From Okeania sp. (GTDB lineage: Bacteria > Cyanobacteriota > Cyanobacteriia > Cyanobacteriales > Microcoleaceae): a stretch of DNA of 6,212 nucleotides. The notes below the pieces were generated by a model. The model was not told the DNA's origin. It did no database searches and was given only the letters and a program-made list of their open reading frames with translations. A program made the position numbers and the translations under genes. Positions 2 to 6,212 of the stretch are shown here, one piece after another. Location: the NCBI RefSeq assembly GCF_035285525.1, contig NZ_JAYKGW010000045.1:1-6212 (forward strand), written 5' to 3'. How positions within the stretch are numbered: the first letter of the stretch is position 1; each line of letters starts with the position of its first letter.

Positions 2-823
2 ATTTTAGATTATTTTGGTGAAGTATTGCAGCCAGAATTAACTTTAGCTGATGCAATTAAACAAGGTGCTTTAGCTCGTTATCTTTATTATCCAGTTTTA
101 GTAGAATTGACTGAAGAGGAAAGTCGAAATTATGCAAAACTTACCTCTAAAATTGGTTGGGCATTATTATTATCAGAAAAAGAAAATGTAGAAATAGAAA
201 AAGAAGATTTAAAAGCTTTATTGATGCAGCGTTCCCGATTAATTGCTTCAGCAGCAAATAAATTAACAGCATTAAGAAAATTAATGGCAAGTCGTTTACA
301 AACAACTCATACTTTATTTTATTGTGGAGATGGTTCGGTAGAAACAGAAAATATTTCAAATTTACGACAAATGGAAGCGGTGGTAAAAATATTAGGTTCA
401 GAATTAGGTTATAGAGTTAATAGTTATATTGCGGAAACTCCGATTAAAAAAAGAGAGAAATTAAGACAACAATTTGAAAGTGGAGAGTTACAAGGTTTAG
501 TAGCAATTAATTGTTTAGATGAAGGGGTAGATATACCTGTAATTAAAAATGCAGTTATCTTAGCAAGTAGTCGAAATCCTCGACAGTTTATTCAGAGAAG
601 AGGTAGAATTTTACGACCTCATCCCAATAAGGAAAGAGCAACTTTATTTGATATGATTGTTTTGCCTCCAGATCTGGGTAGAAGTAGTTTAGAGGTAGAA
701 CGAAATTTGCTGAGAAAAGAGTTAAAAAGGTTCTTAGAATTTGCCGATTTAGCAGATAATGCTGGAGAAGCTAGAGTTAAGTTATTAAACATTCAAAAAA
801 GGTATGGATTATTAGATATTTGA
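2..823 (+). CDS. SF2 helicase, C-terminal (RecA2) half; ResIII/Helicase_C-type DEAD/DEAH-like helicase; 5' end lies outside the window
   Basis: The frame is open from nt 2 (ILDYFGEV...), so the TTG at 26 used by the ORF track is probably not the true start. The translation carries helicase C-terminal motifs: LFYCG (motif IV-like), LVAINCLDEGVDIP (motif V; DEGVDIP = 518-538) and QFIQRRGRILR (motif VI; QRRGRILR = 593-616). Stop TGA is at 821-823. Confidence 0.8.
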   Translation: MLDYFGEVLQPELTLADAIKQGALARYLYYPVLVELTEEESRNYAKLTSKIGWALLLSEKENVEIEKEDLKALLMQRSRLIASAANKLTALRKLMASRLQTTHTLFYCGDGSVETENISNLRQMEAVVKILGSELGYRVNSYIAETPIKKREKLRQQFESGELQGLVAINCLDEGVDIPVIKNAVILASSRNPRQFIQRRGRILRPHPNKERATLFDMIVLPPDLGRSSLEVERNLLRKELKRFLEFADLADNAGEARVKLLNIQKRYGLLDI

Positions 824-890: not shown

Positions 891-3014
891 ATGTCTCTAG
901 AATTACCAGAAGCAAATCCTAAAAACTTGTTAGATATTATTAAATATGCTGTGGAAGGAACAGTTGTTATTCCTGATTTTCAAAGATCTTTTGTTTGGAA
1001 AAAAGATGATATTCAAGATTTATTAACTTCTTTATTGCAGGGTTATTTTATCGGAATATTTTTGATGTTAGATACCTCTAGTAAAAACCCAATGTTTCCT
1101 TTTAGATTTGTGGAGGGAATAACAGATAAACCTAATGCTACAGACAATGTAAGGTTAGTTCTTGATGGTCAGCAACGCATTACTTCTCTATATTATGCAC
1201 TTTATGAACCTAATCAACCTCTAAAAGGGGCTAAAAATCCTTATCGTTTTTATTTACGTTTAGAGTCAGTTTTAGATAATGATTTAGAAAGTGCAGTGAT
1301 AGGTATATCTGAACGGGATAGCCGTAGAAGAAAAGAATATGATGAATTAGTAAAACAACACAAAGCCTTACCTTTTTCTCTATTGCGAGATTCTAATAGT
1401 TTTAATAAGTGGCTGTATCGAGAACAAGATATTTGGGAGGATAAACAACAAGAATTATTGATAAATATCCATGAAAGGCTCCATAAATTTATGGTTCCTG
1501 TTATTTCCTTATCTCCTGAAACAAGAGAAGAAGATATTGTCAATATTTTTGAGCGAATTAATCGTACTGGTGCTAGTCTTTCTCTTTTTGATTTGGCTGT
1601 AGCAAATATTTATAAAAAGGGAGTAAATTTACGAGATTTATGGCAGAAAGCTCAAAATAATTATCAGGAAGTTACAGATTTAATTAAACCAGAATTTTTA
1701 CTGAGACTAATTGCTTTGGGGCAAGCCATAGAACCAAAAAAAGGTAACTTATTAAAAATGACAAGATACATAGAAGGAGAATTATTTAAAAAGTTATGGC
1801 ATGAAGCAGTTAAGTCAATAGTAACAGCTTATCAAAGATTAATTAATGTGTATGGAGCCTTTGATTCTAAGTGGATTCCTTATACTACTTTAATTGTTCC
1901 TTTGGCTGCTTTATTAAATAAAATAAATCGAATTTCTGCTGGTGCTGAAGCTTATCAAAAGTTAGATTGTTTTTATTGGGGATGTATTTTAGGTCAGCGT
2001 TATGACAATGCTGTAGATAGCAAAATTCATTATGATTTTCAAAATGTTAGTGGATGGATAGATAATCAGGGAAATGCACCAGAATGGTTGCAAAAATTAT
2101 CTGTTCAAAGTTTTGATTTAAAGACTGAGGAAAGTTATACAACTTTATATAGAGGATTAATGGGATTAATTGCTTGTGAAGGTTCTAAAGATTTTTTAAC
2201 AGGGCAACCTGCAGAAATTAATAAATGTCAAGATGACCATATTTTTCCTAAGTCTAGGTATAGTGAAAAATATGATAATTTAGTTGATAGTATTCTGAAT
2301 CGAACTTTAATTTCTCAAGCAACTAATAGATGTAAAAGTAATAAACTTCCGGCGGATTTTTTAGATGATTGTTTGGCTAAACATGGTGGTAATAAAGAGC
2401 AGCTTTTAGAAACTTTAGCTAGTCATTTTATTGATGAGGATGGGTATGCAGCAATGCAAAATAATGATTTTATTCGTTTTATAAATTCTCGTCAGAAAGT
2501 TATGCAAAAAAAATTACAAGAAATTGTATCTTTAGCTGAACCTATTGAGGAGTTAGAAGTTGTTTTTGAAGATGAGGTGACATATTGGTTAACTCCAGTT
2601 GCTGCTACTGAGGAACGTTCTGCTTCTGAGCAAATTAAGTTTTTGGTTGGTGAAGAAAAGATTTATGCTTTTGGAGATAAAACTCCTGGTAGAAAAAGTC
2701 TTAAGTCTGGGGATAATATTTGTTTTTATGCTGCTGCTAAGGGTATTGTTGCTCATGCTTTAGTTAAAACTAAACCAGAAAAGTCGGCTCATCCTAAAAT
2801 TTTTAATTCTGATAGGTATCCTTGGGTTTTTGAGTTAGAAAAACCTTGTTTATATTTGGATAATCCTGTAGTTTTAGATGAAGATTTAAGGAATAAGTTA
2901 GATGCTTTTTTAGGGCGTAGCGATCGTTCTAATTGGTCATGGTTTGTTCAGGTTACTAGAAAAATTTCTGCCAATGATTTTGTAGTTTTGACTAGAGATT
3001 TTTATAAGGTATAA
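891..3014 (+). CDS. GmrSD-family (DUF262 + DUF1524) type IV restriction-like nuclease with an additional C-terminal EVE/PUA-like domain
   Basis: 707-aa ORF. DUF262 signatures: IPDFQRSFVW (aa 27-36), DGQQR (aa 92-96, nt 1164-1178) and FERINRTGASLSLFDL. DUF1524/His-Me finger-type signature: DDHIFPKS (His450 = nt 2238-2240) followed by LNRTLISQATNRCKSNK. About 145 further residues follow the nuclease domain. Stop TAA is at 3012-3014. Confidence 0.85.
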   Translation: MSLELPEANPKNLLDIIKYAVEGTVVIPDFQRSFVWKKDDIQDLLTSLLQGYFIGIFLMLDTSSKNPMFPFRFVEGITDKPNATDNVRLVLDGQQRITSLYYALYEPNQPLKGAKNPYRFYLRLESVLDNDLESAVIGISERDSRRRKEYDELVKQHKALPFSLLRDSNSFNKWLYREQDIWEDKQQELLINIHERLHKFMVPVISLSPETREEDIVNIFERINRTGASLSLFDLAVANIYKKGVNLRDLWQKAQNNYQEVTDLIKPEFLLRLIALGQAIEPKKGNLLKMTRYIEGELFKKLWHEAVKSIVTAYQRLINVYGAFDSKWIPYTTLIVPLAALLNKINRISAGAEAYQKLDCFYWGCILGQRYDNAVDSKIHYDFQNVSGWIDNQGNAPEWLQKLSVQSFDLKTEESYTTLYRGLMGLIACEGSKDFLTGQPAEINKCQDDHIFPKSRYSEKYDNLVDSILNRTLISQATNRCKSNKLPADFLDDCLAKHGGNKEQLLETLASHFIDEDGYAAMQNNDFIRFINSRQKVMQKKLQEIVSLAEPIEELEVVFEDEVTYWLTPVAATEERSASEQIKFLVGEEKIYAFGDKTPGRKSLKSGDNICFYAAAKGIVAHALVKTKPEKSAHPKIFNSDRYPWVFELEKPCLYLDNPVVLDEDLRNKLDAFLGRSDRSNWSWFVQVTRKISANDFVVLTRDFYKV
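2580..3011 (+). other. C-terminal EVE/ASCH-like (PUA-fold) putative modified-base reader domain of the GmrSD-like protein
   Basis: From aa 564: TYWLTPV ... LKSGDNICFYAAAKGIVAHALVKTKPE ... YPWVFELEKPCLYLDNPVVLDEDL ... RKISANDFVVL. This matches the EVE pattern: YWL start, GD-x-hFYH-like strand followed by G-I-V-hydrophobic, W-x-V-x-hydrophobic, and a C-terminal L-S/T-xx-F-xx-L. The assignment is by eye only. Confidence 0.45.
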
Positions 3015-3160
3015 AATTATCAATATAAGTCAGAAAAAAATTACATGATAATTAACACCAAAAATCTATGCCTAATATCATAATTAACCTACCCGATGAA
3101 ATATTTTATTCTTCATAGCTAGGTTGTGAAAAATAAATAATAAACTTTTTTTACCAGAGA

Positions 3161-3168
3161 GCGATCGC
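3161..3168. repeat. HIP1 (highly iterated palindrome 1) octamer GCGATCGC
   Basis: Perfect GCGATCGC, embedded in the 10-bp palindrome AGCGATCGCT (3160-3169). A 7/8 copy, GCGATCGT, lies at 2920-2927 inside the GmrSD-like gene. Confidence 0.6.
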
Positions 3169-3335
3169 TAATAATTCTTTATCAATAAATACCTATATTT
3201 TGATCTAAAAATTACTTAAAAAATATCAAAAATGACAGTTTAAATAAAACTCAATTCACTATAAAATATTGTCGAACCAGATTCAGTGTATTTCAGAAAG
3301 CTATCTCTATCATTTTTTTCTTTTTTTCCAAGTTT

Positions 3336-3377
3336 ACTCCTTCTTCCTTTTTCCTTCTTCCTTCTTACTTCTTACTT
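3336..3377 (+). repeat. Heptanucleotide tract, 6 units of consensus CTTCCTT, directly upstream of the 81-aa ORF
   Basis: ACTCCTT CTTCCTT TTTCCTT CTTCCTT CTTACTT CTTACTT, followed by AAATAAAA-ATG(3386). It is preceded by the pyrimidine run T7CT7CC (3313-3329). Confidence 0.85.
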
Positions 3378-3385
3378 AAATAAAA

Positions 3386-3631
3386 ATGACTTTAAAATAT
3401 TCAGATAAAGTAATCAAAGAAATATCAACTATTTTTGCTGAAAAGCATTCTAAATATAATCCTAAAACTCAAAATAAACTCAATAATATTCAAGAGCCAA
3501 TTACGACGGCTCCCCCAGAAGTAAAAAAAATTATTGCGCGAGTTTTACAATTAGAAAAAGACAGACTTTATAAAAAAACTCCTAGAATTAATGATGATAT
3601 TATCAAAATTATTAAAGAAGCAATTCAATGA
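3386..3631 (+). CDS. Hypothetical 81-aa lysine-rich protein. Its stop overlaps an ATPase-type start codon (ATGA).
   Basis: ATG 3386 is the first start after an in-frame TAA (3377-3379). There is no obvious SD. The stop TGA (3629-3631) overlaps ATG 3628 of the first copy of the ATPase start, an arrangement typical of translationally coupled operon partners. I recognise no family. Confidence 0.5.
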   Translation: MTLKYSDKVIKEISTIFAEKHSKYNPKTQNKLNNIQEPITTAPPEVKKIIARVLQLEKDRLYKKTPRINDDIIKIIKEAIQ

Positions 3632-3711
3632 AATTAATTTTAATTATTTTGTGTAATTTTCGACAATTTTACGGCAAAAGTCGAGAAATAGTTTTAGCAT
3701 CAGGGAAATAG
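3628..3711 (+). pseudogene. Truncated ATPase start, copy 0 (MKLILIILCNFRQFYGKSREIVLASGK*)
   Basis: 27 codons homologous to ATPase codons 1-27. TAG at 3709-3711 takes the place of Gln28. The ATG overlaps the small-ORF stop. Confidence 0.8.
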
Positions 3712-3717
3712 AGTTTT

Positions 3718-3745
3718 CTTACTTCTTACTTCTTCCTTTTCCCTT
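3718..3745 (+). repeat. Heptamer tract, 4 units
   Basis: CTTACTT CTTACTT CTTCCTT TTCCCTT. Confidence 0.85.
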
Positions 3746-3763
3746 AAATCAAGAAGCAATTCA

Positions 3764-3847
3764 ATGAAATTAATTTCAATTATTTTGTGTAATTTCTGGC
3801 AGTTTTATGGCAAAATATTACAAATAGTTTTGAAATCAGGGAAATAA
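3764..3847 (+). pseudogene. Truncated ATPase start, copy 1 (MKLISIILCNFWQFYGKILQIVLKSGK*)
   Basis: 27 codons plus TAA at 3845-3847. Confidence 0.8.
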
Positions 3848-3853
3848 AGTTTT

Positions 3854-3867
3854 CTTCCTTCTTCCTT
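3854..3867 (+). repeat. Heptamer tract, 2 units
   Basis: CTTCCTT CTTCCTT. Confidence 0.85.
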
Positions 3868-3885
3868 AAATCAAGAAGCAATTCA

Positions 3886-3969
3886 ATGAAATTAATTTCA
3901 ATTATTTTGTGTAATTTTCGGCAGTTTTATGGCAAAACTCCAGAAATAATCTTGGCATTGGGAAAATAG
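3886..3969 (+). pseudogene. Truncated ATPase start, copy 2 (MKLISIILCNFRQFYGKTPEIILALGK*)
   Basis: 27 codons plus TAG at 3967-3969. The variable part is of the same type as the genuine gene. Confidence 0.8.
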
Positions 3970-3975
3970 AGTTTT

Positions 3976-4018
3976 CTTAACTTCTTCCTTCTTCCTTCTT
4001 CCTTCTTCCTTCTTCCTT
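3976..4018 (+). repeat. Heptamer tract: one degenerate 8-mer followed by 5 perfect CTTCCTT
   Basis: CTTAACTT, then CTTCCTT x5 (3984-4018). Positions 3981-4018 are 38 nt of pure pyrimidine. Confidence 0.9.
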
Positions 4019-4036
4019 AAATAAAGAAGCATTTCA

Positions 4037-4120
4037 ATGAAACTAATTTCAATTATTTTGTGTAATTTTCGGCAGTTTTATGGCAAAATATTACAAATAG
4101 TTTTGAAATTAGGGAAATAA
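4037..4120 (+). pseudogene. Truncated ATPase start, copy 3 (MKLISIILCNFRQFYGKILQIVLKLGK*)
   Basis: 27 codons plus TAA at 4118-4120. It is in the same reading frame as the genuine ATPase ORF, since 150 nt equals 50 codons. Confidence 0.8.
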
Positions 4121-4126
4121 AATTTT

Positions 4127-4168
4127 CCTCCTTCTTCCTTCTTCCTTCTTCCTTCTTCCTTCTTCCTT
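4127..4168 (+). repeat. Heptamer tract: CCTCCTT followed by 5 perfect CTTCCTT
   Basis: Positions 4123-4168 are 46 nt of pure pyrimidine. The first unit, CCTCCTT, equals the core of the 16S rRNA 3'-end anti-SD sequence. Confidence 0.9.
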
Positions 4169-4186
4169 AAATTAAGAAGTAGTTCA

Positions 4187-6212
4187 ATGAAATTAATTTC
4201 AATTATTTTGTGTAATTTTCGTCAGTTTTATGGCAAAACTCCAGAAATAATTTTGGCATCAGGTAAACAAAATACAACAATTATTCATGGTAACAATGGT
4301 GCAGGTAAAACCACGATAATGAATGCTTTTACTTGGGTACTTTATGAAAAATTTAGTGCTGCTTTTGCAGCAGAAACTCAATTAGTAAATAAACGAGCAA
4401 TTACAGAAGCAAAACCAGGTCAAGCTATAGCTTGTTGGGTAGAAATTATGTTTGAACATGATAATAAACGTTATCAAATTAAACGTTTATGTCGAGCTTA
4501 TAGAAACGAAAAAAATCGAATTGAACATGGTAAAAGTGAGCTATATATGCAAATAGCTGGAGATGATGGACGTTGGTCTCCACCACCGGAACATCCTGAT
4601 GATATTGTTGGGAGAATTTTGCCAGAAAGTTTACATAGATATTTCTTTTTTGATGGGGAAAGAATTGAGTATATTTTTAGGGATAACCAGAAAAGTGAAA
4701 TTGCTGAAGCTACTAAAGAATTATTGGGAATTGAAGTATTAAATCGTTCTGTTAGACATTTAGGAGAAGCTAAAAAGTCTCTGGAAACTGATTTAAGATT
4801 GATTGGTAATCCTGAGACTAAAAAGTTATTGAAGGAAAAAAGTCAAGTTGAAAAGGAAATTGATAAATTATCAAAACGCCAAAAAGAAATAGACAAAGAA
4901 TTACAACATTATCGGGAATTTAAACGAGAAATTAGTAGTCGTTTATTGGATTTTAAAGGTGCAGAAGGTTTGCCTCAACAAAGAGATCAATTAAAAGTTC
5001 AGATTGGAGCAATTAGAGAACAAATAGTACAAGCAAATCAGGTTTTGAAAAGAGCTATATCAACTCGTGGTTATATGGTATTTTTATCAGAATCAATAGC
5101 AGAATTTCGAGAATTATTTGGTTATTTAAAAGAAAAAGGGGAGTTACTTACTGGAATTAATCGGCAGTTTATTCAACAGTTATTAGAGGCACAACTTTGT
5201 ATTTGTGGAACTGAATTAACTAAAGATTCGACTGGGAGAAAATTAGTAGAAAAATGGATGGAAAAAGTAGAGATTGCTGATGTTGAAGAAACTGCTATTA
5301 AAATGACTGTACAAATGGATGAAGTTGAGAAACAAGTAGTAGATTTTTGGGAGGAAGTTGATAGACAACAGGGAAATATAGAACAATTACGTTCTCAACT
5401 TTCCGGGATTGAAAATCAATTAGACATCGTTCAAAAAAAATTACGCAGTTATCCTAATGAGGATATTCAGAAGTTACAAAAAAGGTTAGATGAAATTGAA
5501 GTTAAGGTGGGAGATTTAAACCGGGAAACTGGTTCAAATAATTTACAGTTAGAAACTTTTAATCAACAAATTAAGGTTTTAGAGAAACAACTAGATCGCC
5601 AAAAAATGAATGAGGTAAAACAAGTTTTATGTCAAAGACGAATTGCTGCTACTCAAGATGCTATTCAGAGATTAAACGAAGTTAAGTTACGTTTAGAAAA
5701 ACAGTTTAGAGTTTCTTTGGAAAAACGGATACAAGAATTATTTTCGGAAATTTCTTTTACTCCTTATATTCCTCAACTTAATGAAAATTATGAGTTAACT
5801 TTAGTGGAAAATACTGGTGGTAAAAATTCTTTGGTTGCTGCTTCTACAGGAGAAAATCAAATTCTTAGTTTGGCGTTTATTGGTAGTATTATTGACCAGG
5901 TGAGAGAATGGAGTCAAAAAAATACTTTAATGGGTCCTGATAGTAGCACTTTTCCGATTGTTATGGATTCTCCTTTTGGCAGTTTAGATGAAATTTATCG
6001 ACGACAAATTGCTAAAAAAATTCCTCGATTAGCAAATCAATTAATTGTATTAGTAACTAAGACTCAATGGCGTGGTGAAGTTGCGGAAGAAATGGCTGAT
6101 TATATTGGTAGAGAATATGTTCTTTCTTATAATTCTCCAAAACCAGATTGTGAGGAAGATGCTATTGAGTTAGATGGTAAATCTTATGCTTTGGTAAAAC
6201 GTAGTCCGAATG
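4187..6212 (+). CDS. DndD-like / SMC-Rad50-like ABC ATPase with a long coiled-coil insert; 3' end lies outside the window
   Basis: My own translation gives 675 codons with no stop before the window edge. The gene is absent from the supplied ORF track. The N-terminus is MKLISIILCNFRQFYGK. Walker A is GNNGAGKTT (4289-4315). An FFFDGERIE motif is present. About 350 aa are heptad-like and rich in K, E, Q and L. The ABC signature-like ASTGENQILSLAF has STGE at 5843-5854. Walker B/D-loop is IVMDSPFGSLD (5957-5989). Confidence 0.85.
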   Translation, partial: MKLISIILCNFRQFYGKTPEIILASGKQNTTIIHGNNGAGKTTIMNAFTWVLYEKFSAAFAAETQLVNKRAITEAKPGQAIACWVEIMFEHDNKRYQIKRLCRAYRNEKNRIEHGKSELYMQIAGDDGRWSPPPEHPDDIVGRILPESLHRYFFFDGERIEYIFRDNQKSEIAEATKELLGIEVLNRSVRHLGEAKKSLETDLRLIGNPETKKLLKEKSQVEKEIDKLSKRQKEIDKELQHYREFKREISSRLLDFKGAEGLPQQRDQLKVQIGAIREQIVQANQVLKRAISTRGYMVFLSESIAEFRELFGYLKEKGELLTGINRQFIQQLLEAQLCICGTELTKDSTGRKLVEKWMEKVEIADVEETAIKMTVQMDEVEKQVVDFWEEVDRQQGNIEQLRSQLSGIENQLDIVQKKLRSYPNEDIQKLQKRLDEIEVKVGDLNRETGSNNLQLETFNQQIKVLEKQLDRQKMNEVKQVLCQRRIAATQDAIQRLNEVKLRLEKQFRVSLEKRIQELFSEISFTPYIPQLNENYELTLVENTGGKNSLVAASTGENQILSLAFIGSIIDQVREWSQKNTLMGPDSSTFPIVMDSPFGSLDEIYRRQIAKKIPRLANQLIVLVTKTQWRGEVAEEMADYIGREYVLSYNSPKPDCEEDAIELDGKSYALVKRSPN

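Follow-up and report, generated by a model that had tools for sequence, protein, structure and literature searches.

The question raised by this locus is why a bacterial defence operon should carry the beginning of one of its own genes five times over. The stretch analyzed (hereafter the window) comprises positions 1 to 6,212 of contig NZ_JAYKGW010000045.1 from the cyanobacterium Okeania sp. (6,212 nt, G+C content 30.5%), and its operon is a PbeABCD (CxC ABC-ATPase) defence locus consisting of the 3' end of pbeA, an inserted GmrSD/HNH gene, a putative pbeB and pbeC. Between pbeB and the genuine pbeC start, a segment containing the first codons of pbeC is reiterated head to tail, with four stop-terminated copies (decoys) ahead of the real start (Table 1). 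The best explanation, to which we would assign a probability of roughly 0.6, is that a segment spanning the pbeB-pbeC junction was duplicated in tandem and that the four upstream copies are decaying pseudo-starts. The finding is genuine, but it is probably an ordinary product of a repeat-prone genome.

The geometry of the array had been described in a first-pass annotation of the window, and all of it was reproduced: ATGs at 3628, 3764, 3886, 4037 and 4187, periods of 136, 122, 151 and 150 nt, and at codon 28 TAG (3709), TAA (3845), TAG (3967) and TAA (4118) in the decoys and CAA (4268-4270) in the fifth copy, which reads on into Walker A. The real pbeC start lies 559 nt downstream of the decoy 1 start, and the distance from each decoy stop to the next ATG is 38-67 nt. 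Tandem Repeats Finder (TRF) reported the array with scores of 464 (3615-4271, period 150, 4.7 copies) and 660 (3852-4273), and placed heptamer tracts between the units at 3716-3738, 3852-3867, 3981-4018 and 4125-4168. Each decoy stop is followed by AGTTTTC, (TTCTTCC)n, CTTAAATNAAG and the last 13 nt of pbeB; the AGTTTTC that had been noted after every decoy is present in decoys 1-3, while unit 4 has AATTTTC instead. AAGAAG(C/T)A(A/T/G)TTCA precedes the ATG in every unit, and the pbeB 3' remnant is 13-17 nt long. The units are homologous to the part of the gene encoding ATPase residues 1-27, as had been proposed, although the decoy peptides are inexact copies that differ at 1-6 of the 27 residues. 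Their pairwise identity is 84-95% over 94 nt, a similarity far beyond chance, and the closest pairs are units 2 and 4 (94.7%) and units 3 and 5 (92.6%), indicating that the last expansion copied a two-unit block.

This degree of divergence between units rules out simple repeat mis-assembly. More generally, it is barely credible that a single start was mis-assembled into several. The related arrays described below come mostly from short-read metagenome-assembled genomes, and the four identical 167-nt units of Okeania SIO3B5 or a 99% identical triplication in pbeA of Dapis BLCC M172 could be miscounted; however, the window units differ at 5-16% of positions, their spacers differ, and the same architecture occurs in independent assemblies of five organisms.

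Table 1. Features of the Okeania sp. window (5' to 3').
Feature	Position	Strand	Basis or remark
pbeA 3' part (SF2 helicase subunit)	2..823	+	PADLOC PbeA PDLC02704, E=2.8e-91, model 430-681/682; Pfam Helicase_C 6.9e-14
707-aa GmrSD_N (DUF262) + HNH_4 gene, cargo between pbeA and pbeB	891..3014	+	Pfam GmrSD_N 5e-31, HNH_4 2.1e-5
AAGTTTAC + heptamer tract (TCCTTCT)n, directly upstream of pbeB	3330..3377	+	TRF tract 3338-3377, period 7, 5.7 copies
pbeB (putative), 81-aa small protein	3386..3631	+	ORF listing; TGA overlaps decoy 1 ATG (ATGA)
Decoy 1: pbeC codons 1-27 + TAG (MKLILIILCNFRQFYGKSREIVLASGK, stop)	3628..3711	+	4 non-synonymous codons vs real copy
Spacer 1: AGTTTTC junction, heptamer tract, CTTAAATC, pbeB 3' remnant AAGAAGCAATTCA	3712..3763	+	TRF, alignment
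Decoy 2: 27 codons + TAA (…NFWQFYGKILQIVLKSGK, stop)	3764..3847	+	6 non-synonymous codons vs real copy
Spacer 2: junction, short tract, pbeB remnant	3848..3885	+	TRF
Decoy 3: 27 codons + TAG (…TPEIILALGK, stop), sister of real start	3886..3969	+	92.6% identical to unit 5
Spacer 3: junction, (CTTCTTC)5.4 tract, remnant AAGAAGCATTTCA	3970..4036	+	TRF
Decoy 4: 27 codons + TAA (…KILQIVLKLGK, stop)	4037..4120	+	Direct reading
Spacer 4: AATTTTCC junction, (TTCTTCC)6.3 tract, remnant AAGAAGTAGTTCA, then real start	4121..4186	+	TRF
Genuine pbeC (CxC-type ABC ATPase), runs past window end	4187..6212	+	PADLOC PbeC PDLC02753, E=0, 1062 bits, model 1-648/648

Where the units came from can be read from their edges. 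It had been suggested that each unit condenses three pieces, namely the tract upstream, the small open reading frame (ORF) pbeB at its 3' end and the ATPase gene at its 5' end; the alignment and the junctions bear this out, and the AAGTTTAC sequence with its tract was also recovered upstream of pbeB. The inter-unit spacers appear, from their sequence, to derive from this region: they match it in AGTTT(A/T)C, the tract and CTTAAAT(A/C)AA, and a tract occupies the same position upstream of pbeB in Dapis and Okeania.

Related loci were sought with a degenerate-codon DNA pattern for residues 1-17, applied to one genome per each of 185,579 species (27 stretches found) and followed by a mismatch-tolerant rescan. 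Arrays were detected in four genomes beyond the window: Okeania SIO3B5, with seven decoys ahead of the real start (the four identical units among them), and Okeania SIO2C9, Okeania SIO2B3 and Dapis BLCC M172, with two decoys each. The copy number therefore grows and shrinks between genomes (0, 2, 2, 2, 4 or 7 decoys), as had been anticipated. M172 is overall the nearest locus to the window and also holds the GmrSD/HNH gene. The unit is not dispersed genome-wide, as the scan matched only the pbe locus in each genome, save for one orphan in SIO3B5. This copy opens a second SIO3B5 contig (NZ_JAAHHG010000257; L020, reverse-complement 1-100) with a pbeB remnant and pbeC codons 1-25, followed by unrelated repeat-rich non-coding DNA. 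Either it was orphaned by a rearrangement, or it reflects a strain variant or a different path through the assembly.

The arrays of all five organisms have a common pbeC-side junction, at which codon 27 is followed by TGG (the non-window state) and AGTTTTCTT plus the tract, and the four non-window arrays have a common pbeB-side junction, in which …CCTTAAATTAAG is joined to ATGATATTCTC and 35 nt of the pbeB 3' end. Two loci, L005 and L008, have other heptamers (ATTATCC and CCCTACT) in the tract that precedes their pbeB, indicating that the junction was inherited rather than regenerated locally. Moreover, a decoy-specific codon 12 (CGG) is present in the window and in L008, whereas every real copy has CGT. 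The inherited junctions and the shared CGG indicate that the array arose once and was then inherited or exchanged laterally. Spacer lengths and periods differ, from unit to unit and from genome to genome, nearly always by a multiple of 7 nt. The 27-codon stop, which the first-pass annotation took as a defining feature, does not hold outside the window: codon 28 is TGG in the other four arrays (once TGA, in one SIO3B5 unit), and these decoy ORFs run for approximately 40-47 codons into the tract. The stop-terminated 27-codon decoy is thus, judging from the compared sequences, a local derived state of the window lineage.

The shared junctions also bear on an earlier proposal that the array records repeated replacement of the 5' end, each incoming allele or integrating element having brought a fresh pbeC start. 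Units 2 and 4 do carry a block (ILQIVLK instead of TPEIILA) that resembles a different allele, and the slot between pbeA and pbeB accepts cargo genes. However, the same two junctions occur in five genomes with only the tract between units, the ILQ variant is in none of the real PbeC N-termini examined, and the window contains no integrase or att-like features, which makes serial replacement highly improbable.

A tandem duplication would account for the array in a few steps. In an ancestor of Okeania/Dapis-type cyanobacteria, a segment consisting of AGTTTxC, the heptamer tract, pbeB and pbeC codons 1-27 would have been duplicated in tandem. The duplicated pbeB body would then have been lost by a deletion running from its own ATGA start to a GATGA approximately 37 nt before its end; the Okeania-type junction CCTTAAATTAAGATGATATTCTC is one base off the product expected from such an ATGA-GATGA deletion. 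In the window lineage, a further 24-nt deletion (ATGATATTCTCAAAATTATTAAAG) may have shortened the pbeB remnant to the right length, removing the relic pbeB ATG, and codon 28 may have passed from TGG to TAG to TAA by one or two G-to-A changes in unit ancestors. The comparison between loci shows the unit number shifting by unequal recombination between units and the spacer length by 7-nt slippage of the heptamer tracts. Were decoy 1 to recombine with the real start, the canonical pbeB-ATGA-pbeC arrangement would return and no scar would be left.

In the Okeania-type units themselves (L005, L007, L008 and L012; e.g., L005 reverse-complement 4677-4740), a relic pbeB ATG is fused out of frame and opens a 20-codon ORF (MIFSKLLKKQCNEINFNYLV, then stop) overlapping every pbeC-type ATG, the real one included. 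The window remnant is 24 nt shorter and has no relic pbeB ATG. A read-through coupling, in which the length of the tract would determine whether a decoy ORF terminates on the following ATGA, was rejected for both unit types: in Okeania-type units, TTAAATTAAGATGA after the tract has a stop in each of the three frames, and the window decoys stop at codon 28.

The distribution of the array is patchy. Approximately 34 of the 39 loci (such as Dapis M229, Okeania SIO2G4 and several ENA/Logan contigs) have the canonical 4-nt pbeB-ATGA-pbeC overlap, an intact pbeC and no array. In JGI metagenomes, the junction-specific pattern gave 0 matches and the degenerate start pattern gave eight loci, all of them single-copy. 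When the repeated part was excluded from a pbeC tree, the loci with an array took scattered positions in both major clades, implying repeated loss, transfer or both, and the possibility of scarless collapse to the canonical arrangement offers an explanation for this patchiness. Since none of the loci with an array has a damaged pbeC, the array must at least be tolerated.

Repeats of this kind are common in the genomic background. Period-7 repeats account for 225 of approximately 490 TRF rows in 303 kb of related loci, with CCTTCTT/AAGAAGG among the commonest units, and about 12 other tandem arrays with periods above 100 nt were found in the same loci. One of these is the pbeA triplication of M172 (L012, reverse-complement 1218-1976), in which the final ~240 nt of pbeA, together with 13 nt more, are repeated with a period of 253 nt; each copy has a premature TGA (…KRF, then stop), making it a second partial-gene tandem array in the operon. 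In addition, arrays with a period of 148-149 nt (1.8-5 copies, 91-92% matches) lie right after pbeC, before the expected pbeD, in three genomes (L012 1-741, L026 7218-7609 and L029 3211-3479). The tract itself, (GGAAGAA)n on the other strand, is a homopurine mirror repeat, a class of sequence that is H-DNA-prone and destabilising.

Tracts of this kind have precedents. Heptanucleotide repeats (short tandemly repeated repetitive sequences and long simple sequence repeats) have been described in cyanobacteria and Beggiatoaceae, where many of them closely precede a start codon (MacGregor 2015, PMC4679880, citing Mrazek 2007). The window (TTCTTCC)n tracts are similar in having a period of 7, a position directly upstream of starts and 7-nt length steps between strains; unlike the simple tracts described there, they flank larger units of ~150 nt, each with a gene start inside it. 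A tandem array holding partial copies of the adjacent gene has been reported at Tery_0080 of Trichodesmium erythraeum IMS101 (Pfreundt et al. 2014, PMC4143802), which belongs to the same cyanobacterial family. Both arrays lie head to tail beside the parent gene, include a gene fragment in each unit, contain copies of mixed age and point to an origin by duplication. The Tery_0080 units are 736-973 bp long, hold the 3' part of the gene on the opposite strand and give rise to a very abundant non-coding RNA, whereas those of the window are 122-151 nt long and hold the 5' end, start codon included, on the sense strand within an operon. Reiterated gene starts in Pbe or cyanobacterial loci were not found described in the available text of the literature consulted. 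If the array is only duplication debris, it would be a clean, dated example of heptanucleotide tracts seeding higher-order tandem duplications in repeat-rich marine cyanobacteria, and a case showing how such arrays can disappear without a scar.

Whether the decoys are decaying or maintained can be approached through their codons. Pairwise comparison of 18 closely related real copies over codons 1-25 gave 669 synonymous codon differences and not one that was non-synonymous, whereas the decoys have amino-acid changes in 10 of the 25 columns; their substitutions comprise S5L, N10D/K, R12H/W, T18S/I, P19R/S/L, E20Q, I22T/V, A24K, S25L and G26E. Because the decoys vary in amino acids and the real copies do not, the decoy peptide is free of the constraint that PbeC is under. 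One clustered change, the ILQIVLK block mentioned above, is common to units 2 and 4. In M172, the decoys carry private synonymous variants of that genome, which is evidence of gene conversion with the real copy.

Several observations weigh against simple decay. None of the 17 decoys in the five genomes has lost its ATG or acquired an internal stop or an indel within the 27 codons, although only approximately 11 of the 17 sequences are distinct, so that the intact frames are a weak sign of constraint. The decoy ATG and frame have been kept in the window although its units are old, with divergence of up to 15-16%. Codons 1-17 are also less variable than codons 18-27 in the window (7/51 vs 13/30 columns, Fisher p=0.0065), which could reflect constraint on the initiation region or, equally, gene conversion or one event that altered several bases at once in the unit ancestral to 2 and 4. 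Finally, although scarless collapse is possible, both pbeC clades still contain the single-origin array next to an undamaged pbeC, a pattern compatible with a tolerated or useful regulatory effect. As evidence for constraint, the conservation pattern of the decoys remains weak.

A 14-nt palindrome, TGAAATTAATTTCA, lies over the start codons at 3629-3642, 3765-3778, 3887-3900 and 4188-4201 and is perfect in units 2, 3 and 5. It was rejected as a conserved operator site, synonymous changes in relatives disrupting the palindrome, and is probably a by-product of coding M-K-L-I-S.

Even as debris, the array may have a consequence for translation. Ribosomes ending pbeB would re-initiate on decoy 1 instead of pbeC, and the real pbeC start would need de novo initiation or leaky re-initiation through the decoys. 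Judged from this arrangement, the array probably uncouples pbeC from pbeB translation and lowers the PbeC:PbeB ratio. We saw no evidence of selection for this uncoupling effect. The first-pass annotation had suggested decoy-start control or control by upstream open reading frames (uORFs); such control is possible, and positive evidence for it was none, given that the peptides are unconstrained, no RNA structure was found and the array is missing in most close relatives with an equally intact pbeC.

The selective version of this idea holds that the array is a copy-number-tunable translational attenuator or uncoupler, in which the decoys take the termination-reinitiation flux from pbeB, each unit letting only part of it through, and the PbeC:PbeB ratio depends on how many units there are. 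With unit number changing by unequal recombination and spacing by heptamer slippage, the array would be a contingency locus able to restrain or unleash a defence ATPase that may be toxic to its own cell. In its favour, the ATGA overlap passes from pbeC in canonical loci to decoy 1 in array loci, and the initiation context, ATG and reading frame are the same in every decoy. The short gaps between stops and the next ATG, the better conservation of codons 1-17 in the window, the polymorphism of copy number and tract length, and the presence of the array in both pbeC clades with pbeC intact point in the same direction. PbeB has also been proposed, speculatively, as a negative regulator (PMC10853773). 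On the other hand, neither the position of the decoy stop nor the decoy peptide is conserved, no accompanying RNA structure was found, the array is lacking in the large majority of loci, even in the nearest relatives whose system is intact, and the same genomes hold many other tandem arrays without an obvious role, one of them at the pbeA 3' end. A selected attenuator is the main rival explanation, though we consider it doubtful.

In its strongest form, the array would act as a heritable, rapidly adjustable gain control: each ~150-nt unit would siphon off ribosomes travelling from pbeB to pbeC, and unequal recombination, aided by slippery H-DNA-prone tracts, would tune PbeC:PbeB between cells and lineages. 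We regard this extension as unlikely; if true, it would represent a contingency mechanism made from copies of the gene's own start rather than from a simple repeat inside the gene. An array that did tune PbeC would offer a new route to variable defence dosage and a handle on the role of PbeB.

Structural signals that might accompany such control were sought in the RNA. Five of six folded segments and the whole 701-nt array gave z scores of -0.9 to +1.6, no better than shuffles, and the sixth segment (the tract upstream of pbeB) was less structured than its shuffles (z=+2.2). A 6-bp CUUCUU/AAGAAG hairpin is present in some minimum-energy folds, again not better than shuffles. Rfam returned two sub-threshold matches, Yfr10 (E=0.64) and IMES-5 (E=0.37), which are far below gathering and were treated as chance. 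No terminator-like site was detected on the plus strand between 2950 and 4400. Minus-strand ORFs across the tracts are artefacts of the purine tract, and the frame of these ORFs would shift with each heptamer gained or lost. In bacteria, leader peptides are single, conserved and tied to RNA structures or stalling motifs. The decoys resemble them as short ORFs ahead of a start, presumably on the same mRNA, with decoy 1 inheriting its ATGA from pbeB. They differ in being serial copies of the gene's own start, with unconstrained sequence and stop position and no structure. The hallmarks of attenuation by a leader peptide or uORF, a conserved peptide or stop position coupled to an alternative RNA structure or terminator, were not found: the stop at codon 28 occurs only in the window, the fold z scores range from -0.9 to +2.2 and no terminator-like site was detected on the plus strand of the region scanned.

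A transcriptional role was also considered, in which each unit (tract plus TTAAAT…) would carry a promoter or UP-like element and the array would thereby multiply the promoters of pbeC, or the tract length would set promoter spacing as it does in phase-variable promoters. TAnnnT-like hexamers (TAAATT) do follow every tract, and tract length does change in 7-nt steps. However, a consensus scan of the plus strand found no sigma-70-like promoter in the units, all candidates lying at 2988-3267, upstream of pbeB, and the other heptamers found upstream of pbeB in relatives argue against a sequence-specific element, so that this explanation is distinctly improbable. With regard to phase variation, repeat number differs between genomes, and the tracts lie upstream of the real ATG and outside predicted promoters. 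Like contingency loci, the locus combines slippery tracts and a strain-variable unit number beside a defence gene; unlike them, its tract is neither in the real ORF nor in a demonstrated promoter spacer, and no ON/OFF effect can be read from it.

Three further mechanisms that rely on repeated gene segments were rejected. Silent-cassette gene conversion (similar to pilE/pilS) does not fit, because the residues encoded by codons 1-25 are invariant among the closely related real copies compared, and the ILQIVLK and SREIVLA blocks are in none of those copies. For a diversity-generating retroelement with template and variable repeats, the differences between units would have to be adenine-specific, but they include C>T, T>A, G>C and A>G, and the window proteins contain no reverse transcriptase domain. 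A CRISPR array is contradicted by "spacers" that are heptamer tracts, by homology over whole units and by the absence of any Rfam CRISPR match.

Regarding the operon itself, the ATPase had been described as DndD-like. The DndD model indeed matches it in PADLOC (5.8e-50), but the PbeC model is far ahead (E=0), and PbeC is the more precise name. Its motifs comprise Walker A (GNNGAGKT from aa 35) and a CxC Zn-hook (CIC at aa 338-340), the CxC motif being the one that defines CxC-type ABC ATPases (PMC10853773). Its closest PbeC relatives occur in Dapis and Okeania, which are marine filamentous cyanobacteria (84-92% identity), with 92% to Dapis M172 and 90% to Dapis M229. The locus agrees with the PbeABCD system (Xiong 2019, PMC6459918; PMC10853773) in the strong scores of PbeA and PbeC, the small putative pbeB between them and a 154-aa gene at the pbeD position in relatives. 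It differs from canonical loci, which have the pbeB-pbeC ATGA overlap, in its reiterated pbeC start. The 154-aa gene encodes a DUF4332 protein and lies downstream of pbeC in the relatives (the window stops inside pbeC); PbeD has been identified as a DndE cognate (PMC10853773).

The 81-aa ORF fits pbeB by position and size, PMC6459918 giving 66 aa for PbeB. Neither Pfam nor PADLOC has a model that matches its product, even with the E-value limit raised to 10, and it is 81-89% identical across the Dapis/Okeania loci, where pbeB overlaps the real pbeC start. According to PMC6459918 and PMC10853773, PbeB is a small, rapidly evolving protein that is essential for defence in Haloterrigena, and its role as a negative regulator is a speculation of the latter. 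The observations are of modest interest for workers on Pbe systems and on genome annotation, with the practical warning that gene callers may choose a decoy ATG or call phantom genes of 27-47 aa in Pbe loci.

The remaining genes, the pbeA 3' part and the GmrSD/HNH gene, are the context of the array and not members of it. The PbeA fragment is the 273-aa C-terminal part of the protein, its N-terminal (HKD) part being outside the window. The GmrSD/HNH gene is also present in Dapis M172 (90% identity) and in loci L029 and L038 and is missing from most relatives; the last ~150 aa of its product matched no Pfam family. The gap between pbeA and pbeB is a variable cargo slot, in which most relatives hold 1-1.5 kb of repeat-rich non-coding DNA and Okeania SIO2C9 (L007 1262-6156) holds a 1321-aa NACHT/NCAB1 NTPase gene on the minus strand and a DUF2726 ORF. 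In the window, this slot also contains GCGATCGC at 3161-3168, and a 7-nt partial match (GCGATCG) lies at 2921-2927 near the end of the GmrSD/HNH gene. GCGATCGC is the HIP1 octamer typical of cyanobacteria, which fits the cyanobacterial origin inferred from the homologues.

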